This document shows positions 47,999 to 62,796 of a DNA stretch of 64,000 nucleotides, piece by piece; the first letter of the stretch is position 1, and the number at the start of each line of letters is the position of its first letter. The DNA comes from Candidatus Hydrogenedentales bacterium (GTDB lineage: Bacteria > Hydrogenedentota > Hydrogenedentia > Hydrogenedentales > GCA-2746185), in contig JBCLBO010000002.1 of assembly GCA_038916785.1 (NCBI GenBank), forward strand, positions 21,085 through 85,084. Reading direction: 5' to 3'. The position numbers and the translations under genes were made by a program. The notes below the pieces were generated by a model. It had not been told where the DNA came from and did not search any database. It was given only the letters and a program-made list of their open reading frames with translations.

Positions 47999-48191
47999 CT
48001 AAATAGCCGGTGATCAATCTGAGACACTGGTGTGTTCTCCACGCCGGAACCTTCACTTTTGTCATTCTGAGCGGTAGCGAAGAATCTCCCCGCCGGTCCG
48101 CCGAAAGACATACCCTGATCTGGCCGCAACGGGCCCAGCGCGATCTATTTCTGCACAGTGAAGTGATCCAGGTATACCACCGGCTATTTAG
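47999..48191 (+). mobile_element. 193-bp MITE-like element, copy 1
   Basis: Terminal inverted repeats CTAAATAGCCGGTG (47999-48012) and CACCGGCTATTTAG (48178-48191). It has no coding capacity and appears identical to the reverse complement of 62604-62796. TA is present at both junctions. Confidence 0.8.
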
Positions 48192-48261
48192 ATGAGAAGC
48201 ATGATCTGAGATGGCTTCGGCTTGCGTGTCTCGGCGTTCCTTGCGTACTCTGTTCAATCGT

Positions 48262-52528: not shown

Positions 52529-55456
52529 TCAGGTCGCCGTCGAACATGCTGCCCCGCACTCGAGGGCCGATCCGAGGCGCTCGACTGGCGGTAGAAGCAC
52601 ATGGACGGCGCCGTCTTCGAGTTTCACTTTGAAGACCTGTATGCGCAGATCGCCTCCGGAAAGGCACCGGCCGGACTCGAGCGAGAACTGCTTCTTGTGT
52701 TGCGGGCAGGCGACTTTGGGTTCGCCTGCCTTGTCGCCGAGGAGGCCGCGGGCAAGGACCATGTCGCGTTTGTGGGGGCAGAGGTTTTGCGTGGCGTACC
52801 ACTCGCCGCGCCGGGAAAAGTTGAACACGGCGATCTGCGCGTTCCCGTATTCCACGGCGATACCGCGGCCTTCGGGGAAGTCGGCGATTTCGCCGGCCCT
52901 CCACCACGCGGCGCCGCCGTTCGTGGCGTCTGCAATCGCCGGATCGGGCATCTGCGGCCGATCGGCCGGCCGTTTCTGTCCGCGCTCGCGCACGAAGCGG
53001 AGATCGGGATCGGGGGCGGGGGTGCCGGCGAAATGTTTGAAGAGGGCGCGTTTGACGGGATTCTCGACCACGGCCTTCCATTCGCAGGCGTAGGTAGCGA
53101 CGAGTTTGGCCATGTCCGCTTCGAGCGTTTCGCAAATTCGGAGCGAATCATTTACGACAACCTGTCTGAGGTGCTCGATCCCTCCTTCGAGCTTCTCGAG
53201 CCAGACCGAAGTGCGCGTGAGCGGATCGGCCGTGAGGATGTAGTACATGAGCAGGCGGTCCATAAACCGGATCGCAGTCTCTTCGTCTACGTCGGCGGCG
53301 AGCAGATCGGCGTGGCGCGGCCTGGCGCCGCCGTTTCCGCAGACGTAGAGGTTCCAGCCTTTTTCCGTGGCCACGAGGCCGACGTCTTTGCTCTGCGCCT
53401 CGGCGCATTCACGGACGCAGCCCGACACGGCGAACTTCAGTTTGTGCGGCGCGCGGATGCCCCGGTAGCGCTCTTCGATGCGAATGGCGAAGGCGGTAGA
53501 GTCCTGGACGCCGTAGCGGCACCAGGTCTGCCCGACGCAGCTTTTCACCGTGCGCACGGCCTTACCGTAGGCATGTCCGCTCTCGAATCCGGCGGCGATG
53601 AGCGCCTCCCAGATTTCGGGCAACTGGCCGACCCGCGCGCCGAGGAGGTCGATTCGCTGGCCGCCGGTGATTTTGCAGTAGAGGTCGTATTTCTTGGCGA
53701 TCGTGCCCAGGGCGATGAGTTTCTCGGGGGTAATCTCGCCACCGGGCACTCGCGGGACGATCGAATAGGAACCGCCCCGCTGGATGTTCGCCAGGAAGCG
53801 ATCGTTGGTGTCCTGAATCTCCGTCTGCTCGATGATGGGCGCGTTCCACAGGCTCGCGAGGATGGAAGCGACTACGGGTTTGCATACTTCGCAGCCGTCG
53901 CCCGTGCCGAGGGCGTCGAGCGCCTCGTCGAAGGTTTTCACGCGGCGGATTTTCACGGCGTGCAGGAGGTCCTTGCGCGACATCGCGAAGTGTTCGCATA
54001 CCGTGTTTTTCTGCAAGATGCCTAGCGCCTTCAACTCAGTCTTGAGAATTTCTTTGACGAGCGGCAGGCAGCCGCCGCATCCAGTGCCCGCCTGGGTGCA
54101 TGCCTGGAGCGCACCGAGTTCGTGCGTGCCGTCGCGGATGCGTGCGCGGATCGTCCCCTTGCCGACGTTGTGACAGGAGCACACGGGGGCCGCATCGGAC
54201 AGGAGGCCGGCCGCGGCCCCCGGCGCGTTCGCGTCGAAGAGACTCGCCACGGGGACGCCGAGCGGATCGCCGGTGCGGGCGTGGTGCGCGAGGAGCTCGA
54301 ACGCGGACACGTCGCCGACGAGAATTCCCCCGATCACGCGGCGCCCGTCCTCGCCGAGCACGACTTTGGAGTAGACGCCCTTCGCCGGGTCCTTGTGTTC
54401 GAAGACTTGCTGCGACTCGCCACTGGCGAAGGGATCGCCTACGCTGGCGACGTCCACCCCGAGCAGCTTGAGTTTGGTAGACAGATCGCTACCGTTGAAC
54501 GTCGCCTCGCCGCCCGCCAGGCGGCGGGCCAGTGTCTCGGCCATCTGGTAGCCGGGCGCGACCAGGCCGTACACTATGCCGCGGTGACACGCGACCTCGC
54601 CGATCGCGTGAATGGACGGGTCGCTCGATTCGAGCGCGTCGTTCACCACGACGCCGCCGCGCGCGCCGATTTCGAGGCCGCAGGCGCGCGCGAGTTCGTC
54701 CCGCGGCTGAATGCCTGCCGAGACCACCACCATGTCTACGTGGAGTATCTCGCCGCCGGCAAAGCGCAGGCCGGTGACCGCGCCATTTCCGGTGACGGCC
54801 TCTGTGGAATGATTCACACGCACCTTCACGCCGCGGCGTTCGATTTCGCGCGCGAGATACGAGCCGCCCGTTTCGTCCAACTGCCGAGGCATGAGCCGCT
54901 CGGCCCGCTCGACCACGTGAGTATCCAGTCCCAGGTCCTGCACGGCCTTGGCCGCTTCCAGGCCGAGCAAGCCGCCGCCGATGACGGCCGCGGATCGGCA
55001 CTGGGACGCATAGGCGATGATCGCATCGAGATCGTCGAGGGTGCGGTAAAGGAAAACTCCTTTTCGGTCGATTCCCTCTGTGGGCGGGACGAATGGCCGC
55101 GAGCCCGTGGCAAGCACGAGACGACCATACCGGAGGGAGCGGCCGGAGTCCGTGAAGACTTCCTTCGCGGCGCGATCGATGCGGGCCACGCGTTCTCCGA
55201 GCAACAGATCGATGCCGTGATCGCTATACCACTGCGGCGCGGCCAGCAGGAGCCGCTCGGCGCTGCGCTCGAGGAAATAGCTGGTCAACCGGACGCGGTC
55301 GTAGGCCGGCCAGCGCTCCTCCCCGATCACGGTGATGCGGATACGGTGGGCGGCGTCGAGGTCGCGGAGCGCTGCGCAAAAACGGTGGCTGGCCATGCCA
55401 TTGCCAACGACCAGCACATCGGTTTCCGCAGACTGTGTCGAGACCGGTGGCATCAC
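52529..55456 (-). CDS. nirB: NAD(P)H-dependent assimilatory nitrite reductase, NirB large subunit fused to a NirD-like small subunit
   Basis: N-terminal FAD/NAD fold (VLVVGNGMASHRF). BFD-like 2Fe-2S (CSCHNV...CGGC). Siroheme/4Fe-4S region (SCVGQTWCRYG ... SGCVRECAEAQ). C-terminal Rieske-like NirD (GEWYATQNLCPHKRDMVLARG...CPQHKKQF). Confidence 0.9.
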   Translation of the reverse strand: MMPPVSTQSAETDVLVVGNGMASHRFCAALRDLDAAHRIRITVIGEERWPAYDRVRLTSYFLERSAERLLLAAPQWYSDHGIDLLLGERVARIDRAAKEVFTDSGRSLRYGRLVLATGSRPFVPPTEGIDRKGVFLYRTLDDLDAIIAYASQCRSAAVIGGGLLGLEAAKAVQDLGLDTHVVERAERLMPRQLDETGGSYLAREIERRGVKVRVNHSTEAVTGNGAVTGLRFAGGEILHVDMVVVSAGIQPRDELARACGLEIGARGGVVVNDALESSDPSIHAIGEVACHRGIVYGLVAPGYQMAETLARRLAGGEATFNGSDLSTKLKLLGVDVASVGDPFASGESQQVFEHKDPAKGVYSKVVLGEDGRRVIGGILVGDVSAFELLAHHARTGDPLGVPVASLFDANAPGAAAGLLSDAAPVCSCHNVGKGTIRARIRDGTHELGALQACTQAGTGCGGCLPLVKEILKTELKALGILQKNTVCEHFAMSRKDLLHAVKIRRVKTFDEALDALGTGDGCEVCKPVVASILASLWNAPIIEQTEIQDTNDRFLANIQRGGSYSIVPRVPGGEITPEKLIALGTIAKKYDLYCKITGGQRIDLLGARVGQLPEIWEALIAAGFESGHAYGKAVRTVKSCVGQTWCRYGVQDSTAFAIRIEERYRGIRAPHKLKFAVSGCVRECAEAQSKDVGLVATEKGWNLYVCGNGGARPRHADLLAADVDEETAIRFMDRLLMYYILTADPLTRTSVWLEKLEGGIEHLRQVVVNDSLRICETLEADMAKLVATYACEWKAVVENPVKRALFKHFAGTPAPDPDLRFVRERGQKRPADRPQMPDPAIADATNGGAAWWRAGEIADFPEGRGIAVEYGNAQIAVFNFSRRGEWYATQNLCPHKRDMVLARGLLGDKAGEPKVACPQHKKQFSLESGRCLSGGDLRIQVFKVKLEDGAVHVLLPPVERLGSALECGAACSTAT

Positions 55457-55843: not shown

Positions 55844-57193
55844 ATGTATAGCCGGAACAAGGCGACGCGAATACAGCTTTTCTCGCTCGGCACGATTCAG
55901 ATGAGGACCTTCCATCTGACCTGGCTGGCTTTTTTCTTGTGCTTCATCGCGTGGTTCGGGATTGCGCCGCTGATGCCGATCATTCGAGAGGAGTTCCACC
56001 TTACCAAGGCGCAGATCGGCAACACGATCATCGCATCCGTGGCGGCGACGATTCTCGCGCGCTTGATCTGCGGGTGGTGCTGCGATCGCTTTGGACCCCG
56101 GCGGACCTATGCGTGGCTGTTGATGCTGGGTGCGATTCCGGTGATGGGTATCGGACTCGCGCATGACTATCCGACCTTTCTGCTTTTTCGACTGGGCATC
56201 AGTGTGATCGGCGCATCGTTCGTGGTTACTCAGTTCCACACCACCATGATGTTTGCGCCCAATTGCGTGGGGACTGCCAACGCCACCACGGCGGGCTGGG
56301 GCAATCTGGGCGGCGGCGTGACGCAGATGATCATGCCTGTTGTTTTCAGCGGCTTCGTCGCCTTGGGACTGAGCGCGCACGGCGGATGGCGCGCCGCGAT
56401 GTTCGTGAGCGGGCTGATTTGTTTCGTGATGGGCATCGTCTACTACCTCTTCACGCGGGACACTCCCGATGGCGACTTCCGCGATCTGCGCGCCTCGGGG
56501 CGGATGTCCGAGGCGAAGGCGAACAAGGGCGCGTTTCTCGAGGCCTGCCGGGACCCGCGCGTGTGGGCGTTGTTCCTCGTGTACGGGGCGAGCTTCGGCG
56601 TGGAAATCACACTGGACAACGTGGCGGCTTTGTATTTCGTCGACTATTTCGACCTCGGCATTCACAGCGCCGGCGCCGTGGCGGCGAGTTTCGGCCTGCT
56701 CAACCTCTTCGCGCGGACCTTGGGGGGAGTATTCGGGGATCGCTGCGGCCGGCGGTGGGGGCTGAAAGGCCGCGTGCGCTGGTTGGCGGTGGTGCTGGTG
56801 GCGGAGGCCGTGGCGCTCATGGTTTTCTCGCGGATGACGATGCTTCCGCTGGCCATCGCCGCGATGCTCGTGTTCGGGCTGTTCGTGTGCATGGGCTGCG
56901 GCGCGACCTTTGCCGTGACGCCCTTTATCAACAAGCGCGCGATTGGGCCGGTGGCCGGGATCGTCGGCGCGGGCGGAAATGTGGGCGCGCTACTCTCGGG
57001 ATTCCTATTCAGGATGGAGGCGCTGGACTGGCCCCAGGCCTTCCTCATCCTTGGAGGCGTCGTGTTGGTGTGCTCCGGATTCACGGCGTTCGTCCGCTTT
57101 TCTCCGCAGGACGAAGCCAGCGCGAAGCGGGAGATCGAAGAGCGGATGGTCGCGACGCCGCAGCCGCAGCCGGCCCTGGCTACCTCGCGGTAG
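55844..57193 (+). CDS. narK: MFS nitrate/nitrite transporter (NarK/NrtP type)
   Basis: 12-TM MFS. N-terminal LFSLGTIQMRTFHLTWLAFFLCFIAWFGIAPLMP and the nitrate-signature-like GWGNLGGG / GAGGNVG motifs. Confidence 0.9.
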   Translation: MYSRNKATRIQLFSLGTIQMRTFHLTWLAFFLCFIAWFGIAPLMPIIREEFHLTKAQIGNTIIASVAATILARLICGWCCDRFGPRRTYAWLLMLGAIPVMGIGLAHDYPTFLLFRLGISVIGASFVVTQFHTTMMFAPNCVGTANATTAGWGNLGGGVTQMIMPVVFSGFVALGLSAHGGWRAAMFVSGLICFVMGIVYYLFTRDTPDGDFRDLRASGRMSEAKANKGAFLEACRDPRVWALFLVYGASFGVEITLDNVAALYFVDYFDLGIHSAGAVAASFGLLNLFARTLGGVFGDRCGRRWGLKGRVRWLAVVLVAEAVALMVFSRMTMLPLAIAAMLVFGLFVCMGCGATFAVTPFINKRAIGPVAGIVGAGGNVGALLSGFLFRMEALDWPQAFLILGGVVLVCSGFTAFVRFSPQDEASAKREIEERMVATPQPQPALATSR

Positions 57194-57205: not shown

Positions 57206-60200
57206 ATGACGATGACCACCGGCCTCACTCAGAGCGTGAGCACCACGTGCAGCTATTGCGGCGTGGGGTGCGGCGTGCGCGTGCGGCGTGACGGCGCGGG
57301 GCGGCTCCAGCTCGACGGGGATCCCGATCATCCCTCGAGCCACGGGATGCTGTGCTCGAAAGGGCGCGCGCTGCATCACGTCGTGCAGGACACGCGCGAC
57401 CGGCTGCTGTATCCGCAGATGCGGCGCAGCCGCGGGCACCCGCTGGAACGGGTGGATTGGGACTCGGCATTGACGCGCGCGGCGGCCGCGTTCAAGTCAA
57501 TCATCGCGCGCTACGGTCCGGAGGCCGTGGGATTCTACGTCTCCGGACAGTGCCTCACGGAGGAATACTACGTCGCAAACAAGCTGATGAAGGGATTCAT
57601 CGGCTGCAACAATATAGACACGAATTCGCGCTTGTGCATGAGTTCGGCGGTGGTGGGTTACACGCTGGCGCTGGGAGACGACCTGTGCCCGATGAGTTAC
57701 GACGACATTGAGCACGGCGACTGCTTCCTGATCGCCGGGGCCAATCCGGCGTTCTGCCATCCGATATTGTTCCGCCGTCTGGAGATCCATAAACAGGCGC
57801 GGCCCGGCGCGCGCGTTATCGTCGCCGACCCGCGCAGGACGCAGAGCTGCGAACTGGCCGACTTGCATCTCCAGCTCCAGCCCGGCACGGACGTCGCCCT
57901 CTTCAACGCGATTGCCCGGGAGTTGATCGAGCGCGAGGCCATCGACAAAGGTTTCATCGACGCCCACACGGCCGGCTTCGAGCGGCTGCGCGAGTCGGCG
58001 ATGGCGCTCACGCTCTCCGAGGCGGCGGCGATTTGCCGGCTCCGCGCGGACGACATCCGCACCGCGGCCGCGTGGATCGGCGAAGCGAAGGCCTTCCAGA
58101 CGTGGTGGGCCATGGGGCTCAATCAGAGCTCCGTGGGCGTGGACAAGAACGTCGCACTTCTAAATTTGTCCTTGCTCACCGGCCAGATCGGCAAGCCGGG
58201 CGCGGGGCCATTCTCGCTGACGGGCCAGCCCAACGCGATGGGCGGACGCGAGGTGGGCGGGCTGGCCACCACGCTGGCGGCGCACCGCGACCTGGCGAAC
58301 CCGGACCACCGGGCGGAAGTCGCGCGCTACTGGGGCGTGCCGCGGGTCTCCGAGAAACCCGGCCTGACCGCGACCGAAATGTTCGACGCGCTGGACAGCG
58401 GCCGGATGCGGGCCATCTGGATTGTCAACACGAATCCCGCGGTGTCCTTGCCCGATCTGAATCGAGTGGAGCGCGCCTTGCTCGCTTCGCGGTTTGTGGT
58501 GGTGCAGGAGATTTCGTCGCTCTCGGACACGGTCGCGTTCGCCGACCTGGTATTGCCGGCCGCCGGCTGGCTCGAGAAGGAAGGGACGATGACCAACTCC
58601 GAGCGCCGGGTGGGCTTGGTGCGTAAACTGGTGGACGCCCCCGGCGAGGCACTTCCGGACGCCGAGATTTTGTGCCGCTTCGCGGAGAAGATGGGTTGGG
58701 GCGCTTCGTTTGCCTACGCATCGCCGGAGGCGATTTTCCGCGAGCACGCTGCGCTGACCCGCGGCACTCCCATCGATATGAGCGGCATCACGTATCGGCG
58801 GCTGCGCGCGGAGGGCCCGCTCCAGTGGCCCTGTCCGTCGGAAGACCACCCGGGCACGCCGCGCCTCTTCGTCGACGGCAAGTTCGCCACCGCGGATGGC
58901 CGTGCGCGGCTGCACAGTGTTTCGTATGAGGCCCCGCTGGAGACCGTGACGGACCGCCTGCCCTATGTGCTGACGACGGGGCGCCTGCGCGATCAGTGGC
59001 ACACGATGACCCGCACGGGCAAAGTGAACAAGCTGCGCAGCCATGAGCCTGAGCCGTTTGTAGAGGTCCATCCGGACGACGCCGCGGAGCAGGGCCTCTC
59101 GGACGGAAGCACGGCGCGGATCGAAAACGATCGCGGCGAAGTGCTCGCCCGCGTGCGGTGTACGGACACGATCAAGCGGGGCACCGTCTTCCTGCCGATG
59201 CACTGGGGCAAAGCACTGCAGAGCGGCCGTGCGCGGACGAACCTCGTCACCAATCCGCGGGTGGACCCGCGATCGCGCCAGCCGGACTTCAAGTTTGCCG
59301 CCGTGAGGTTGGCGCCGGTGCCGCGCGTGCCGCGCCGGATTGTAGTCATCGGCGCGGGCGCGGCGGCGCTTCAGTTCATTTCGGTCTACTGCGAGAAAAA
59401 TCGCGACGATCGGATCACGGTCCTCGGCAACGAGCCCGAGGGTTTTTACGATCGAATTCGTCTGCCGGACTATCTCGCGCTCAAGATAAGTTGGCCCGAA
59501 ATGCTTAGGGACTCGGGCGCTCCGGCCGGTGGCGGTGTGGAAGTGCGGGCGGGTGTTTCGGCGCTGCGCATCGATCGAGAGAACAAACAGGTCGTCGACA
59601 GTTTCGGGATCGCGCACGCCTACGACGCGCTCCTCGTCGCCACCGGAAGCCACGCGGCCCCCGCCGTGAGCACGCCCGCCGGGATGCAGGGGATTTACAC
59701 GCTTCGTTCGCGCGCCGATGCCGACGCGATTCGGGCCGCGGCCGCGCCGGGCGCGCGCGCGGTGGTGCTGGGCGGCGGCCTGCTCGGTGTTGAGGTCGCC
59801 GCCGCGCTGCGCGGGCTTGGCCTGAGCGTGACGTTGCTGCATCGCTCGTCGCGCCTGATGAATGCGCAACTGGACGAGACGGCCGCGGGGATTTTGCGCG
59901 CGGACCTGGCCGATCGGGGCATCGACGTCGTCACACAGGACACCATCGCCCGCGCGCACGGAACGGCCCAGGTGCGCGGCGTCACGACGACGGGAGGGTT
60001 GTATCTGCCGTGCGACCTTCTGGTGTGCGCGATTGGCACGCGGGCAAACGACGAACTCGCGCGCGCGGCGGGCCTGCGCTGCGGCGACGGCGTGATCGTG
60101 GACGACGCGATGCGCGCCAGCGATCCCGACATCTTCGCCATTGGCGAGGTGGCCGAACACAAGGGCCAGCGGCACGGGACGACCCTGGCGGCGCAGCAGC

Positions 60201-60727
60201 AGGCGGATGTCGCCGCGGCGCAACTGAACGGCGCGGTGTGGACGCGTTACGCGGGCAGCGTTCCGGTCCACGTGGTCAAAGTGCCCGGGCTGGCGCTGGC
60301 GGCGCTCGGGAGCACGGCCGCGCCGCCGAATTCGACCGATACCTACGAAGAGATCGTCATGGACGATCGCGCGGAGCGGCTGTATCTCAAATGCATGGTG
60401 CATCGAAACCGCCTGGTCGGCGCGATCATGGCCGGAGACCTCTCGCGGCTGCCGCAGTTCAAGGCGTGGATCGAAAGCGGCATCGAACTCGACGGCGAGC
60501 GGCGAAATCTGCTCCGGTTGCGCGCGGAGTCGCCGGCGGCGGCCCCCCGGGGGCGGCTGGTCTGCGCGTGTTGTCAGGTGGGCGAGGAAAATCTGCGCGA
60601 CGCCATCGCCGGGGGCTGCGCGAATCTCGGCACGCTGGGCGAATCCACCGGCGCAGGGACTGGGTGCGGCAGTTGCCTGCCCGAACTCCGCGGACTGCTG
60701 CGGCGATGCGCGGCGGTACCGGTATGA
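57206..60727 (+). CDS. nasA: Assimilatory nitrate reductase: molybdopterin catalytic domain fused to an NAD(P)H-flavin reductase and a BFD-like 2Fe-2S module
   Basis: N-terminal 4Fe-4S motif CSYCGVGCG...C, then the molybdopterin oxidoreductase body. From about residue 710, a pyridine-nucleotide-disulfide reductase fold (IVVIGAGAAALQF..., AVVLGGGLLGVE) is followed by C-terminal CACCQV...CGSC. Confidence 0.9.
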   Translation: MTMTTGLTQSVSTTCSYCGVGCGVRVRRDGAGRLQLDGDPDHPSSHGMLCSKGRALHHVVQDTRDRLLYPQMRRSRGHPLERVDWDSALTRAAAAFKSIIARYGPEAVGFYVSGQCLTEEYYVANKLMKGFIGCNNIDTNSRLCMSSAVVGYTLALGDDLCPMSYDDIEHGDCFLIAGANPAFCHPILFRRLEIHKQARPGARVIVADPRRTQSCELADLHLQLQPGTDVALFNAIARELIEREAIDKGFIDAHTAGFERLRESAMALTLSEAAAICRLRADDIRTAAAWIGEAKAFQTWWAMGLNQSSVGVDKNVALLNLSLLTGQIGKPGAGPFSLTGQPNAMGGREVGGLATTLAAHRDLANPDHRAEVARYWGVPRVSEKPGLTATEMFDALDSGRMRAIWIVNTNPAVSLPDLNRVERALLASRFVVVQEISSLSDTVAFADLVLPAAGWLEKEGTMTNSERRVGLVRKLVDAPGEALPDAEILCRFAEKMGWGASFAYASPEAIFREHAALTRGTPIDMSGITYRRLRAEGPLQWPCPSEDHPGTPRLFVDGKFATADGRARLHSVSYEAPLETVTDRLPYVLTTGRLRDQWHTMTRTGKVNKLRSHEPEPFVEVHPDDAAEQGLSDGSTARIENDRGEVLARVRCTDTIKRGTVFLPMHWGKALQSGRARTNLVTNPRVDPRSRQPDFKFAAVRLAPVPRVPRRIVVIGAGAAALQFISVYCEKNRDDRITVLGNEPEGFYDRIRLPDYLALKISWPEMLRDSGAPAGGGVEVRAGVSALRIDRENKQVVDSFGIAHAYDALLVATGSHAAPAVSTPAGMQGIYTLRSRADADAIRAAAAPGARAVVLGGGLLGVEVAAALRGLGLSVTLLHRSSRLMNAQLDETAAGILRADLADRGIDVVTQDTIARAHGTAQVRGVTTTGGLYLPCDLLVCAIGTRANDELARAAGLRCGDGVIVDDAMRASDPDIFAIGEVAEHKGQRHGTTLAAQQQADVAAAQLNGAVWTRYAGSVPVHVVKVPGLALAALGSTAAPPNSTDTYEEIVMDDRAERLYLKCMVHRNRLVGAIMAGDLSRLPQFKAWIESGIELDGERRNLLRLRAESPAAAPRGRLVCACCQVGEENLRDAIAGGCANLGTLGESTGAGTGCGSCLPELRGLLRRCAAVPV

Positions 60728-62133
60728 AGAGCGGTCCAGAGATCGTCGCGTACCAGACGCGCGGGGGCCTGCTCTCGCTGGCTGAATTGCGATTGCTGGC
60801 CGAGGCGGCCACGGCCCAGGGTGACCCGCGGCTATTCGCCGTCGGGCGGCAGGAGATTGCTCTGAGCGGGCTCGGTTTCGCGCAGGCTATGCGGCTGCTG
60901 GGTCAGCCGGGCGGCCACATCCTGCAACCGTGGTCACCAACGCGGCCGGCGAACATCATGACGACGGGCCCCGTGGCCGGTCTCGACGGCACGAATCCTT
61001 GGCTGAGCGCTGGAGCGTTCCGGGACCTCCTCGAAAGCTTTCGGTTTGCGCCGAGGCGTTCGATCGCGTTGACCGATCCGTCGCAGGCGTATCTTCCCGC
61101 ATTTCTCGGCGAGATCAATTTTCTCGCGACGGATCAGCGGGACCAGTGGAGAATCCGGCTGGCGCTGCGCGAGTTTGGTGAGGAGTCGCTGCTGCCGGGA
61201 GCGATCCGCTCTCTCGACATTCCCAATGCCGTGGCGATCATCGAGAACTACGCCGACGCCGCGGCGCCGGGCAGCGATCCCTCCGAGTCCACGCGCGCGC
61301 TCACCGAGGCCCTTGAGCCTATTGGATTGCCGGCGCCGGCTTTCTCGTTTCCCAGCGTCAGCCGCTACCGGTGCCCTGCTGGCGCGCTGGTCATTCCGAT
61401 TCCGGAGGAGGGCATCCGCAGCGATTTCTGCCTCGACCTGTGCGTGTGGGCTGCGCGCCTGCCGGGGATTTCCGTGGGCCTGACCCCGTGGCGCACATTC
61501 CTGGTTCGGGGGCTCTCCGAGAGTGCAACGCGCGAACTCCGGGGCCTGTTGATTCGCCGCTGCGTGGCTGAAACCTGCGGCCCGTGGCGGCCGCATTTTT
61601 TGAATTCGCTGTCCGAAGACGGCGCCGAATGGCTGTGCCGTGCGGTGGAAGCCCGGTGTCCAGTGGACGCCGGCCTATCGATTGGCGTGGTCCCGGCGGA
61701 CGCCCCGGCGCCGGACCTACACGTGCTCGTGCGTGAGGGGCCGCGCACATCGCGATGGGGCCGCCTACGCCCCACGCGGTACTCCGTGCAACGCCGCAGT
61801 TCGTACGATGCGCGAAACGCTCCATGGACCCTTGTCGCGGCAGACATTCGACGGCGCGATCTGGGTAGCGTGGTCTTGCAGGCGATCGACATGCTCACGG
61901 GCCCGCCGCAATTGAGAGCGAACAACGAGGCAATGCCCATGGAAAATGTGGCGCCCGATTCCGCCGGATCCGCACTCCGGTGCCGATCCTGCCTCAATGA
62001 GTATGACGCGATCTACGGAGATTCCGCGGGCCGGATCGCGCCAGGGACCCCCTTCCGTCTGCTGTCCGAAGACTGGGGTTGCCCGGTGTGCGGCGGCCCA
62101 AAATCGGACTACGAAGCCGCCGCCGTCGCGTGA
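60724..62133 (+). CDS. Uncharacterised protein with C-terminal rubredoxin domain (possible nitrite/sulfite-reductase-ferredoxin-like N-terminus)
   Basis: The ATG overlaps the nasA stop (ATGA). The C-terminus RCRSCLNEYD...PGTPFRLLSEDWGCPVCGGPKSDY is a canonical rubredoxin CxxC...CxxC knuckle pair. The N-terminus GGLLSLAELRLLAEAA...RQEIALSGL loosely recalls the NiR/SiR ferredoxin-like half-domain. Confidence 0.65.
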   Translation: MKSGPEIVAYQTRGGLLSLAELRLLAEAATAQGDPRLFAVGRQEIALSGLGFAQAMRLLGQPGGHILQPWSPTRPANIMTTGPVAGLDGTNPWLSAGAFRDLLESFRFAPRRSIALTDPSQAYLPAFLGEINFLATDQRDQWRIRLALREFGEESLLPGAIRSLDIPNAVAIIENYADAAAPGSDPSESTRALTEALEPIGLPAPAFSFPSVSRYRCPAGALVIPIPEEGIRSDFCLDLCVWAARLPGISVGLTPWRTFLVRGLSESATRELRGLLIRRCVAETCGPWRPHFLNSLSEDGAEWLCRAVEARCPVDAGLSIGVVPADAPAPDLHVLVREGPRTSRWGRLRPTRYSVQRRSSYDARNAPWTLVAADIRRRDLGSVVLQAIDMLTGPPQLRANNEAMPMENVAPDSAGSALRCRSCLNEYDAIYGDSAGRIAPGTPFRLLSEDWGCPVCGGPKSDYEAAAVA

Positions 62134-62603
62134 CCAATGGGGTCGTCATTCGGGTCCTAAAATAGGATCGGCAGAGCCGGTGAAAAAGCCGATCTCGTTT
62201 GTCTGTTGTAGTCGCGGCGATAATGGTGGATTCAAAGTCTACGTGCAACAACTCCGTGATTAGAAGCGGTACTTCGCGGCCTATCCAAGCCGAAGGCTTG
62301 ACAGAAAGTAGCCAGTGGTCGCCGCAGCGCGGCGACCACCGGGTAGCGAAAAAAGCCGAAGCACCCTGGAGGGGGGGGTGCCAGAAGCCTTATGCATTTT
62401 CTGCGACCCCTCCAGGGTCGGTAGCACTGGCCAGGTATCCGGGGGTGTCGCTGCGCTCAACCCCCGGCTACTCTCTGGCAACTCTTCGAGTTGCACACCA
62501 CTCGAATCCGCCGTGTTCTATGCCTCGCGATCCGCTTAAAGGGCCAAACCCCAGGCAACTCGTCGAGTTGCGCCGGCGTGGCTACAGTTTTTCGACAAAT
62601 GCT

Positions 62604-62796
62604 CTAAATAGCCGGTGGTATACCTGGATCACTTCACTGTGCAGAAATAGATCGCGCTGGGCCCGTTGCGGCCAGATCAGGGTATGTCTTTCGGCGGACC
62701 GGCGGGGAGATTCTTCGCTACCGCTCAGAATGACAAAAGTGAAGGTTCCGGCGTGGAGAACACACCAGTGTCTCAGATTGATCACCGGCTATTTAG
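62604..62796 (-). mobile_element. 193-bp MITE-like element, copy 2 (inverted relative to copy 1)
   Basis: Same TIRs (62604-17 and 62783-96). Reading both sequences, I see no mismatch to the reverse complement of 47999-48191. TA is present at both junctions. Confidence 0.8.

Follow-up and report, generated by a model that had tools for sequence, protein, structure and literature searches.

Why should a nitrate reductase that already brings its own flavin module for NADH be followed by the gene of yet another redox protein? The question is raised by a locus in a stretch of 64,000 nucleotides of DNA from a Candidatus Hydrogenedentales bacterium (assembly GCA_038916785.1, contig JBCLBO010000002.1, positions 21,085 to 85,084 of the forward strand), the whole of which is called the window here. 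The gene lies at 60724-62133 (+) of this window, directly after that of an assimilatory nitrate reductase, NasA, in which a molybdenum and a flavin part are fused into one chain. Its product, a rubredoxin-tailed protein with the fold of sulfite and nitrite reductases (SiR/NiR), has been given the working name RdT. To our knowledge, NADH-type assimilatory nitrate reductases are thought to need only a flavin and a molybdenum subunit. The answer offered here is that RdT is an uncharacterised, widespread pseudo-nitrite-reductase carrying a rubredoxin tail, and that it probably assists the fused NADH-nitrate reductase as one of its subunits.

Where does this protein begin? Translation of the gene gives 469 residues, and its ATG (60724-60726) shares two nucleotides with the TGA (60725-60727) of the upstream open reading frame (ORF) of 1173 residues, which runs from 57206 to 60727. 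Close homologues are 99, 71, 58 and 55% identical to the window protein. Those of 55-71% identity have the same starting Met, or their alignment begins at residue 6, and in the overlap region the homology of the nasA frame in relatives reaches its last residues; a start at 60724 is therefore credible. The initial annotation of the window, made from the letters alone, had read the overlap as a sign of translational coupling, a view that the related loci discussed below uphold. It had also set aside the upstream part of a 707-residue ORF that starts at 60010, and rightly so, as homologues start at or near the Met at 60724 and this ORF is the RdT frame merely left open upstream. The genome is a metagenome-assembled one, 86% complete and near-identical to GCA_038916775.1. 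Two hairpins lie in or near the gene: a terminator-like one followed by a T run at 61576-61595 (+), within the coding region, which is probably there by chance, and a strong 14-bp GC-rich one with a weak T tail at 62312-62342 (-), ~180 nt beyond the RdT stop.

What is the large body that precedes the rubredoxin? An AlphaFold2 model built on an 11-sequence alignment (mean predicted local confidence, pLDDT, 79) consists of a folded body (residues ~7-392), a linker (394-415) with pLDDT below 50, and the rubredoxin. When this model is compared with the PDB by Foldseek, the top match is NirA of Mycobacterium tuberculosis (1zj8, E 2e-12). The E. coli sulfite reductase hemoprotein (SiRHP) and plant nitrite reductases rank next, with E values down to 2e-10 and an overall range to 2e-7, and all of these matches extend over ~460-480 alignment columns at 10-13% identity. 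For a search of the PDB sequences the profile was restricted to the body (27 family members); the full-length alignment is swamped by rubredoxins. This profile also finds NirA (E 1.4e-11), the two repeats of the fold being matched separately, so that residues 106-168 of the M. tuberculosis protein correspond to repeat 1 of RdT and residues 336-427 to repeat 2. In agreement with this, hhalign aligns the RdT body with a canonical NirA (599 residues, with the motifs CTGNAGC and CPHSC, from genome G400) over 382 columns, at a probability of 98.3% and an E value of 1e-14. The resemblance to nitrite/sulfite reductase half-domains, which the initial annotation had described as loose, is real and stronger than claimed there: the RdT body is a pseudo-enzyme, descended over its full length from a siroheme nitrite/sulfite reductase of the NirA type. 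One other origin, as a split-off C-terminus of NirB, was considered and rejected. The hemoprotein domain of the window's own NirB reaches only 39% in hhalign, and given the weakness of this comparison against the 98% of NirA, a NirA-type origin is preferred.

The word pseudo-enzyme is justified by what the alignment reveals at the catalytic sites. The C-x5-C motif of NirA, CTGNAGC, falls in an 11-residue deletion of RdT, and the C-x3-C motif, CPHSC, in a gapped and variable stretch. As for the anion-binding residues, which we take to be numbered R83, R153, K215 and K217 in SiRHP, the counterpart of the first Arg is A9, the Arg of the NirA motif DNIRN is aligned with P76 (the adjacent N77 is retained), and the positions of the RKFN lysines are unconserved in the RdT family. 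Among 105 full-length representatives of the family no Cys of the body is conserved, the best column being 64% Cys, and no Cys, His or Met of the body is invariant as an axial ligand; the statement of the initial annotation that a siroheme/4Fe-4S cysteine cluster is missing holds for the window protein and for these representatives alike. In summary, RdT has lost all four [4Fe-4S]/siroheme cysteines together with the anion-binding Arg and Lys residues, and a siroheme/[4Fe-4S] enzyme of the known kind is excluded.

The models of protein family databases agree with this picture. With Pfam, NIR_SIR_ferr scores 18.7 bits on RdT, under its cut-off of 24, and NIR_SIR gives no match, while a precomputed PF03460 match exists for some homologues. 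The model of the precorrin-3B synthase CobG (TIGR02435) reaches 15.8 bits against a cut-off of 234.8, and the NarJ/TorD/DmsD, NapD, FdhD and FdhE models of Pfam and NCBIfam have no match to RdT at E up to 1. Neither the searches with hidden Markov models (HMM) nor the structure prediction thus matched the body to a family with an unrelated role. What has been kept, or gained, is concentrated in repeat 1, which holds most of the family-invariant residues (G14, G15, R42, Q43, N77, W93, D118, Q121, P125, G129, N132, F133 and W142). Two of them, D118 and Q121, belong to an insert of 8 residues, DPxQxxVP, that is specific to RdT.

The tail is easier to recognize. Residues 418-462 match Pfam PF00301 with 47.1 bits (cut-off 23) and an E value of 2.5e-12, in line with the canonical rubredoxin that had been annotated at this place; the tail also matches rubredoxins of the PDB down to E 5.7e-11 and, in the AlphaFold2 model, is superposed on them by Foldseek with a root-mean-square deviation of 0.6-1.0 A. 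Its two CxxC knuckles, C420-x2-C423 and C453-x2-C456, are ~29 residues apart (Cys codons at 61981, 61990, 62080 and 62089), and 105/105 representatives have all four Cys. Of the rubredoxin core, Y427, G432, F444 and L447 each reach at least 90% conservation among these representatives, and W451 and Y463 of the aromatic core are present in the window protein. The first knuckle reads CxxCL, the usual form in rubredoxins being CxxCG. The tail is therefore a true rubredoxin, predicted to be an Fe(Cys)4 redox carrier, and it is joined to the body by a linker of ~22 residues.

How common is such a protein? An exhaustive phmmer search with the RdT body alone, over 1.84 billion representatives clustered at 50% identity, gave 166 clusters with E values of 1e-3 or lower, 45 of them with 1e-10 or lower. 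Nearly all family members have 440-510 residues. The canonical rubredoxin spacing is found at the end of 105 of the 112 representatives with at least 430 residues; the second spacing is shortened in 6, and the knuckles are absent from 1. Where databases give a name at all, it is only "rubredoxin" or "rubredoxin domain-containing protein", and searches of the full-text literature brought up no paper about RdT. A pattern scan of species genomes returned more than 576 relatives from Bacteroidota among the matches listed, and the isolates among these include Algoriphagus, Echinicola, Polaribacter, Maribacter, Formosa, Tenacibaculum, Flammeovirga, Cyclobacterium and Fodinibius; Polaribacter, Formosa, Maribacter, Algoriphagus and Tenacibaculum are genera known from marine habitats. 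For the high-GC family members outside the window's phylum, a metagenome scan returned only stand-alone rubredoxins. Body and tail of RdT are both under selection. Two copies have an in-frame stop, namely a TAG in genome G074 (contig C34) and a TGA in G135 (C1:5245756-5247177), and these may be pseudogenes, sequencing errors or cases of recoding.

The next question is what RdT travels with. In all of 80 Bacteroidota loci the NasA fusion lies directly upstream of RdT on the same strand; its molybdenum and flavin parts are both visible in 72 of them, and in the other 8 the contig end cuts the fusion, with the flavin module present. The same arrangement holds in the window's phylum (12/12 informative loci) and in 3 metagenome loci, and it persists at RdT identities from 18% to 58%. 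Out of 92 nasA-RdT pairs, 19 have the ATGA overlap of the window, 7 more overlap by 1 nt, and 57 have a gap of up to 28 nt; these distances rest on automatic start assignment, so that the larger gaps are approximate. As far as gene arrangement can predict it, RdT and the fused NasA accordingly share one mRNA, and their translation is often coupled. In Bacteroidota the gene sits between nasA and moaA-moaD-moaE. Among the loci as a whole the order nasA-RdT is fixed, while the position of nirB is variable. Some Bacteroidota fusions are longer, such as one of 1240 residues (locus L011, 3020-6742), and give one more BFD-like [2Fe-2S] match at their C-terminal end, which explains the wider gap between the flavin match and RdT in 16 loci.

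Is this companionship a matter of nitrate assimilation in general? Two surveys, of 135 species genomes of the window's phylum and of an even sample of 301 Bacteroidota genomes, give the same reply. In the former, the full-length fused NasA was found in 15 genomes, 14 of which also have RdT; the 19 genomes that have only an unfused NasA (~37% identical and covering residues ~10-710) contain stand-alone rubredoxins only, and none has RdT. In the latter, RdT was found in 15 genomes, adjacent to the fused NasA in 13, while contig ends or scoring limits obscure the neighbourhood in the other two; 13/16 genomes with fused NasA have it, as against 0/12 with unfused NasA only. Taken together, none of 31 genomes with only an unfused NasA has RdT. 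The surveyed genomes are related and not independent, and the same pattern appears in two distant phyla. RdT is consequently tied to the fused NasA::FAD type of enzyme and not to nitrate assimilation as such, which makes the co-occurrence with nitrate-assimilation genes, close to absolute, more specific than the initial annotation had envisaged.

The few genomes that depart from this rule have other neighbours beside nasA. Within the window's phylum, G021 (C70:1-12000), 95% complete, is alone in having a fused NasA but not RdT; there, fused nasA is followed by an unrelated opposite-strand gene for 731 residues, NasA adjoins a NirB-like gene, and RdT was not found elsewhere in the genome. In G400 (C1:472000-486000) and G208 the cluster consists of a major facilitator superfamily (MFS) transporter, a canonical NirA, a flavodoxin, a CysJ-like FAD/NAD reductase split into two genes, the fused NasA and a LysR regulator, with no RdT. 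G144 likewise has no RdT, and the MFS transporter, NirA and flavodoxin are seen upstream of its fused nasA. From these RdT-less clusters with a real NirA, it is suggested that RdT arose from a NirA encoded beside fused NasA and, after NirBD had taken over the chemistry, was retained in some non-catalytic capacity.

What might this role be? The proposal that we favour, tentatively and at a little less than an even chance, is that RdT is a non-catalytic, redox-active partner subunit of the fused NADH-nitrate reductase, whose tethered rubredoxin acts as a one-electron relay. The dead reductase body would dock on the NasA fusion as a scaffold, perhaps on its NirB-like flavin/[2Fe-2S] module, much as in NirB, where the hemoprotein domain rests on the flavin module of the same protein. 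The rubredoxin on its tether would be reduced by the module of NasA and would then swing as a one-electron relay, or serve as a buffer, and its acceptor could be either the N-terminal [4Fe-4S]/Mo centre of NasA or an outside partner such as NirBD. In support of this proposal is the fact that the flavin module belongs to the ferredoxin/rubredoxin-reductase family: its nearest PDB chains are ferredoxin and rubredoxin reductases, the top one being 1xhc, which we take to be the NAD(P)H:rubredoxin oxidoreductase of Pyrococcus. The module also matches the nirB domain of TIGR02374 (E 2e-84), and in NCBIfam it scores 284 bits as NirB-like versus 133 bits as NorW-like. Three points weigh against a relay. 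NasBC of Bacillus subtilis and NasAC of Klebsiella use the same chain of FAD, 2Fe-2S, 4Fe-4S and Mo and, as far as we know, need no rubredoxin for it. The four fusions found without RdT (G021, G208, G400 and G144) are 53-56% identical to the window's and have all of its domains, and hence RdT is not indispensable for the electron flow inside NasA. Finally, the RdT body is 18-23% identical between phyla, where NasA is ~50% identical, and this gives no direct sign of a docking surface. The fast divergence of the body fits a scaffold.

The electron entry point, the assembly factor and the regulator that the initial annotation had listed all remain live options for RdT. It is conceivable, though rather unlikely, that RdT stays out of the electron path and acts on the fused NasA as a factor for its maturation, stability or regulation. 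It could keep the flavin module in position while the Mo cofactor or the Fe-S clusters are inserted, protect the enzyme, or gate its activity by redox state, with the rubredoxin as a sensor or a structural metal knuckle. The four fusions that occur, presumably in active form, with no RdT would be accommodated by such a factor, as would the fast divergence of the body and the place of the Bacteroidota gene between nasA and moaA-moaD-moaE. There is a precedent in FdhE, an iron-binding, rubredoxin-like protein needed for the maturation of formate dehydrogenase, and a review reports the maturation protein NarJ as essential for the assimilatory NasA of Paracoccus (PMC10609526). On the other hand, the lack of similarity between RdT and NarJ/TorD, NapD, FdhD or FdhE in Pfam and NCBIfam speaks against a factor of this sort, the tail retains the full aromatic core of redox rubredoxins beyond the four Cys, and the start/stop overlap suggests stoichiometric synthesis, which is more like that of a subunit than of a catalytic chaperone. 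Could RdT serve instead the nitrite step, as an adaptor or channel through which NirBD receives nitrite or electrons from the NasA fusion, so that an old contact between NasA and NirA persists after NirBD took over catalysis? Its clear descent from NirA would suit such a function, and so would the clustering of the most conserved residues in the former active-site region of repeat 1 and the fact that a canonical NirA is present in all three fused-NasA clusters of Bacteroidota that lack RdT, whereas RdT-bearing clusters in which nirB was seen have the NirB(D) type. We consider it improbable all the same: the loss of the anion-binding Arg and Lys and the insertion with the invariant D118 at this place argue against nitrite binding by RdT, the fused NasA of G021 stands beside a NirB-like gene with no RdT, and it is nasA, and not the variably placed nirB, that has a fixed position next to RdT.

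Two further proposals would make RdT an enzyme after all. In one of them, to which we give a small chance, a tetrapyrrole or another cofactor occupies the old siroheme pocket, the protein's own rubredoxin replaces the [4Fe-4S] cluster, and the substrate is nitrite, hydroxylamine or nitric oxide (NO) from NasA. The whole two-repeat fold has indeed been kept, with a patch of strong conservation where the active site used to be, and the PDB matches include a flavorubredoxin and a rubredoxin-bearing hydroxylamine reductase, that is, fusions of rubredoxin to enzymes that handle N-oxides; moreover, NasC-type enzymes can make NO (PMC4724949). Such an enzyme would nevertheless have to work with the loop of the siroheme-bridging Cys deleted, with the cationic ligands of substrate and carboxylates gone, with no invariant Cys, His or Met in the body as an axial ligand, and in a protein that NIR_SIR of Pfam does not match. 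A slightly slimmer chance still is left for an enzyme of new design: the siroheme-reductase fold would use a tethered rubredoxin in place of its coupled [4Fe-4S], a rebuilt pocket, with the invariant D118 and Q121 and several invariant Trp, would bind a cofactor or substrate, and NO, hydroxylamine or nitrite, as reactive by-products of nitrate reduction, would be removed right at the enzyme where they arise. At the opposite extreme, RdT might be a decaying relic of a nitrite reductase with no present function. The lost catalytic motifs and the occasional in-frame stops of G074 and G135 could be read in this way, yet this is hardly credible for a protein with an intact frame, a constant length of ~440-510 residues, residues that are invariant in the body as well as in the tail, a spread over more than 100 clusters (50% identity) in different phyla, and relatives in more than 576 species genomes among the matches listed.

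Whichever role is the right one, fused NasA is accompanied by a conserved third component in hundreds of Bacteroidota species and in an unrelated high-GC phylum. If RdT is a subunit or relay of the fused enzyme, models of nitrate assimilation in these bacteria miss a part, and the heterologous expression of NasA alone may mislead. RdT also illustrates clearly how a redox enzyme can turn into a pseudo-enzyme and be retained as a partner, and cultured, genetically tractable hosts that have it exist.

The surroundings of RdT in the window (Table 1) are those of a compact nitrate-assimilation cluster. The catalytic part of NasA matches Molybdop_Fe4S4, Molybdopterin and Molydop_binding of Pfam, as well as the NasC and NasA models of NCBIfam, and the flavin module fused to it matches Pyr_redox_2, Pyr_redox, Rubredoxin_C and Fer2_BFD, with the BFD-type [2Fe-2S] domain at its end. 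The MFS transporter gene that opens the operon is found at the equivalent position in the Bacteroidota loci. The divergent nitrite reductase is a single NirB-NirD chain, and both reductases of the cluster are therefore fusion proteins; its Pfam domains, precomputed for a 99%-identical locus, are Pyr_redox_2, Fer2_BFD, NIR_SIR_ferr, NIR_SIR and a C-terminal Rieske domain. Fused flavin modules in the nitrate and in the nitrite reductase, as the initial annotation had it, are thus both present.

Table 1. Coordinates of RdT, its parts and the neighbouring nitrate-assimilation genes in the window
Feature	Position	Strand	Basis
RdT, whole gene	60724..62133	+	ORF, translation, homologues; stop codon included
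ATGA overlap of nasA stop and RdT start	60724..60727	+	sequence
First SiR/NiR repeat of RdT (residues ~7-200)	60742..61323	+	AlphaFold2 model, Foldseek, HMM, hhalign, column statistics
Second SiR/NiR repeat of RdT (residues ~215-392)	61366..61899	+	HMM, hhalign; places of C-x5-C and C-x3-C deleted or replaced
Disordered linker of RdT (residues 394-415)	61903..61968	+	AlphaFold2 pLDDT <50; unconserved in family alignments
Rubredoxin domain of RdT (residues 418-465; C420, C423, C453, C456)	61975..62118	+	Pfam, PDB, Foldseek
Catalytic part of the NasA fusion (residues 1-705; 4Fe-4S and molybdenum-bis-molybdopterin guanine dinucleotide, Mo-bisMGD, domains)	57206..59320	+	Pfam, NCBIfam
NADH/FAD reductase, like the NirB N-terminus, with BFD [2Fe-2S] module, fused to NasA (residues 706-1173)	59321..60727	+	Pfam, NCBIfam
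MFS nitrate/nitrite transporter (NarK/NasA-type), first gene of the operon	55844..57193	+	Pfam MFS_1, E 4e-39
NirB-NirD fusion, NADH-nitrite reductase, 975 residues, divergent	52529..55456	-	translation, precomputed Pfam

A wider look at the window shows two arms of 194 nt, at 47999-48192 and 62603-62796, which are perfect inverted copies of each other and each have a 14-nt terminal repeat, CTAAATAGCCGGTG. They enclose a segment of 14.4 kb with biotin genes and the whole nitrate-assimilation cluster. In the four other genomes of the window's genus neither fused NasA nor RdT is present, and from this it follows that the segment may have arrived by transfer. Its GC content is not distinctive.

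How does RdT compare with systems that are already known? The closest are monomeric siroheme reductases of assimilation, built of two repeats. With NirA/SirA (1zj8), the ferredoxin-nitrite reductases of plants and cyanobacteria, and CysI/SiRHP, RdT shares the fold over the whole body, both repeats being homologous, and the GG, RQ and (R)N motifs of their ferredoxin-like half-domains are retained in it. Unlike these reductases, it has no cluster cysteines, no C-x5-C loop, no anion-binding Arg and Lys and no NIR_SIR match in Pfam; the N-terminal ~120 residues of NirA are also missing, whereas the DPxQxxVP insert and the C-terminal rubredoxin have been added. A different kind of likeness is offered by FdhE, which is comparable to RdT as an iron protein with CxxC knuckles that serves a molybdenum-bis-pyranopterin guanine dinucleotide (Mo-bisPGD) enzyme in a non-catalytic way (PMC10609526). 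Here, no relation of sequence or fold to RdT was found, and FdhE differs in having four CxxC pairs and no SiR-like body, and in serving exported enzymes.

Other parallels come from electron transfer. RubB-RubA of Pseudomonas aeruginosa (2v3a/2v3b) and NorW-NorV of E. coli have reductases of the same family as the flavin module of NasA, and in the flavorubredoxin NorV the rubredoxin is the C-terminal tail of a larger protein, as it is in RdT; unlike in these pairs, the flavin module here is NirB-like and has a [2Fe-2S] cluster of its own, and the protein that carries the rubredoxin has no catalytic centre. NasBC of B. subtilis and NasAC of Klebsiella oxytoca have the cofactors of the fused NasA (FAD, BFD-type 2Fe-2S, 4Fe-4S and Mo-bisMGD), distributed over two separate subunits, while here they are fused and a third, unrelated partner gene comes after. 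We know of no rubredoxin or SiR-like partner of NasBC or NasAC. A parallel to the proposed role is NasG of Paracoccus denitrificans, a Rieske-type ferredoxin through which the nitrate reductase NasC receives electrons from the NADH/FAD site of NasB. By analogy with NasG (and with NirD), RdT would be an iron-sulfur carrier of a nas operon placed between a flavin module and a Mo enzyme; unlike NasG, it has no Rieske domain, and its flavin module is fused to NasA itself, the carrier being a rubredoxin tethered to a pseudo-enzyme of 400 residues.

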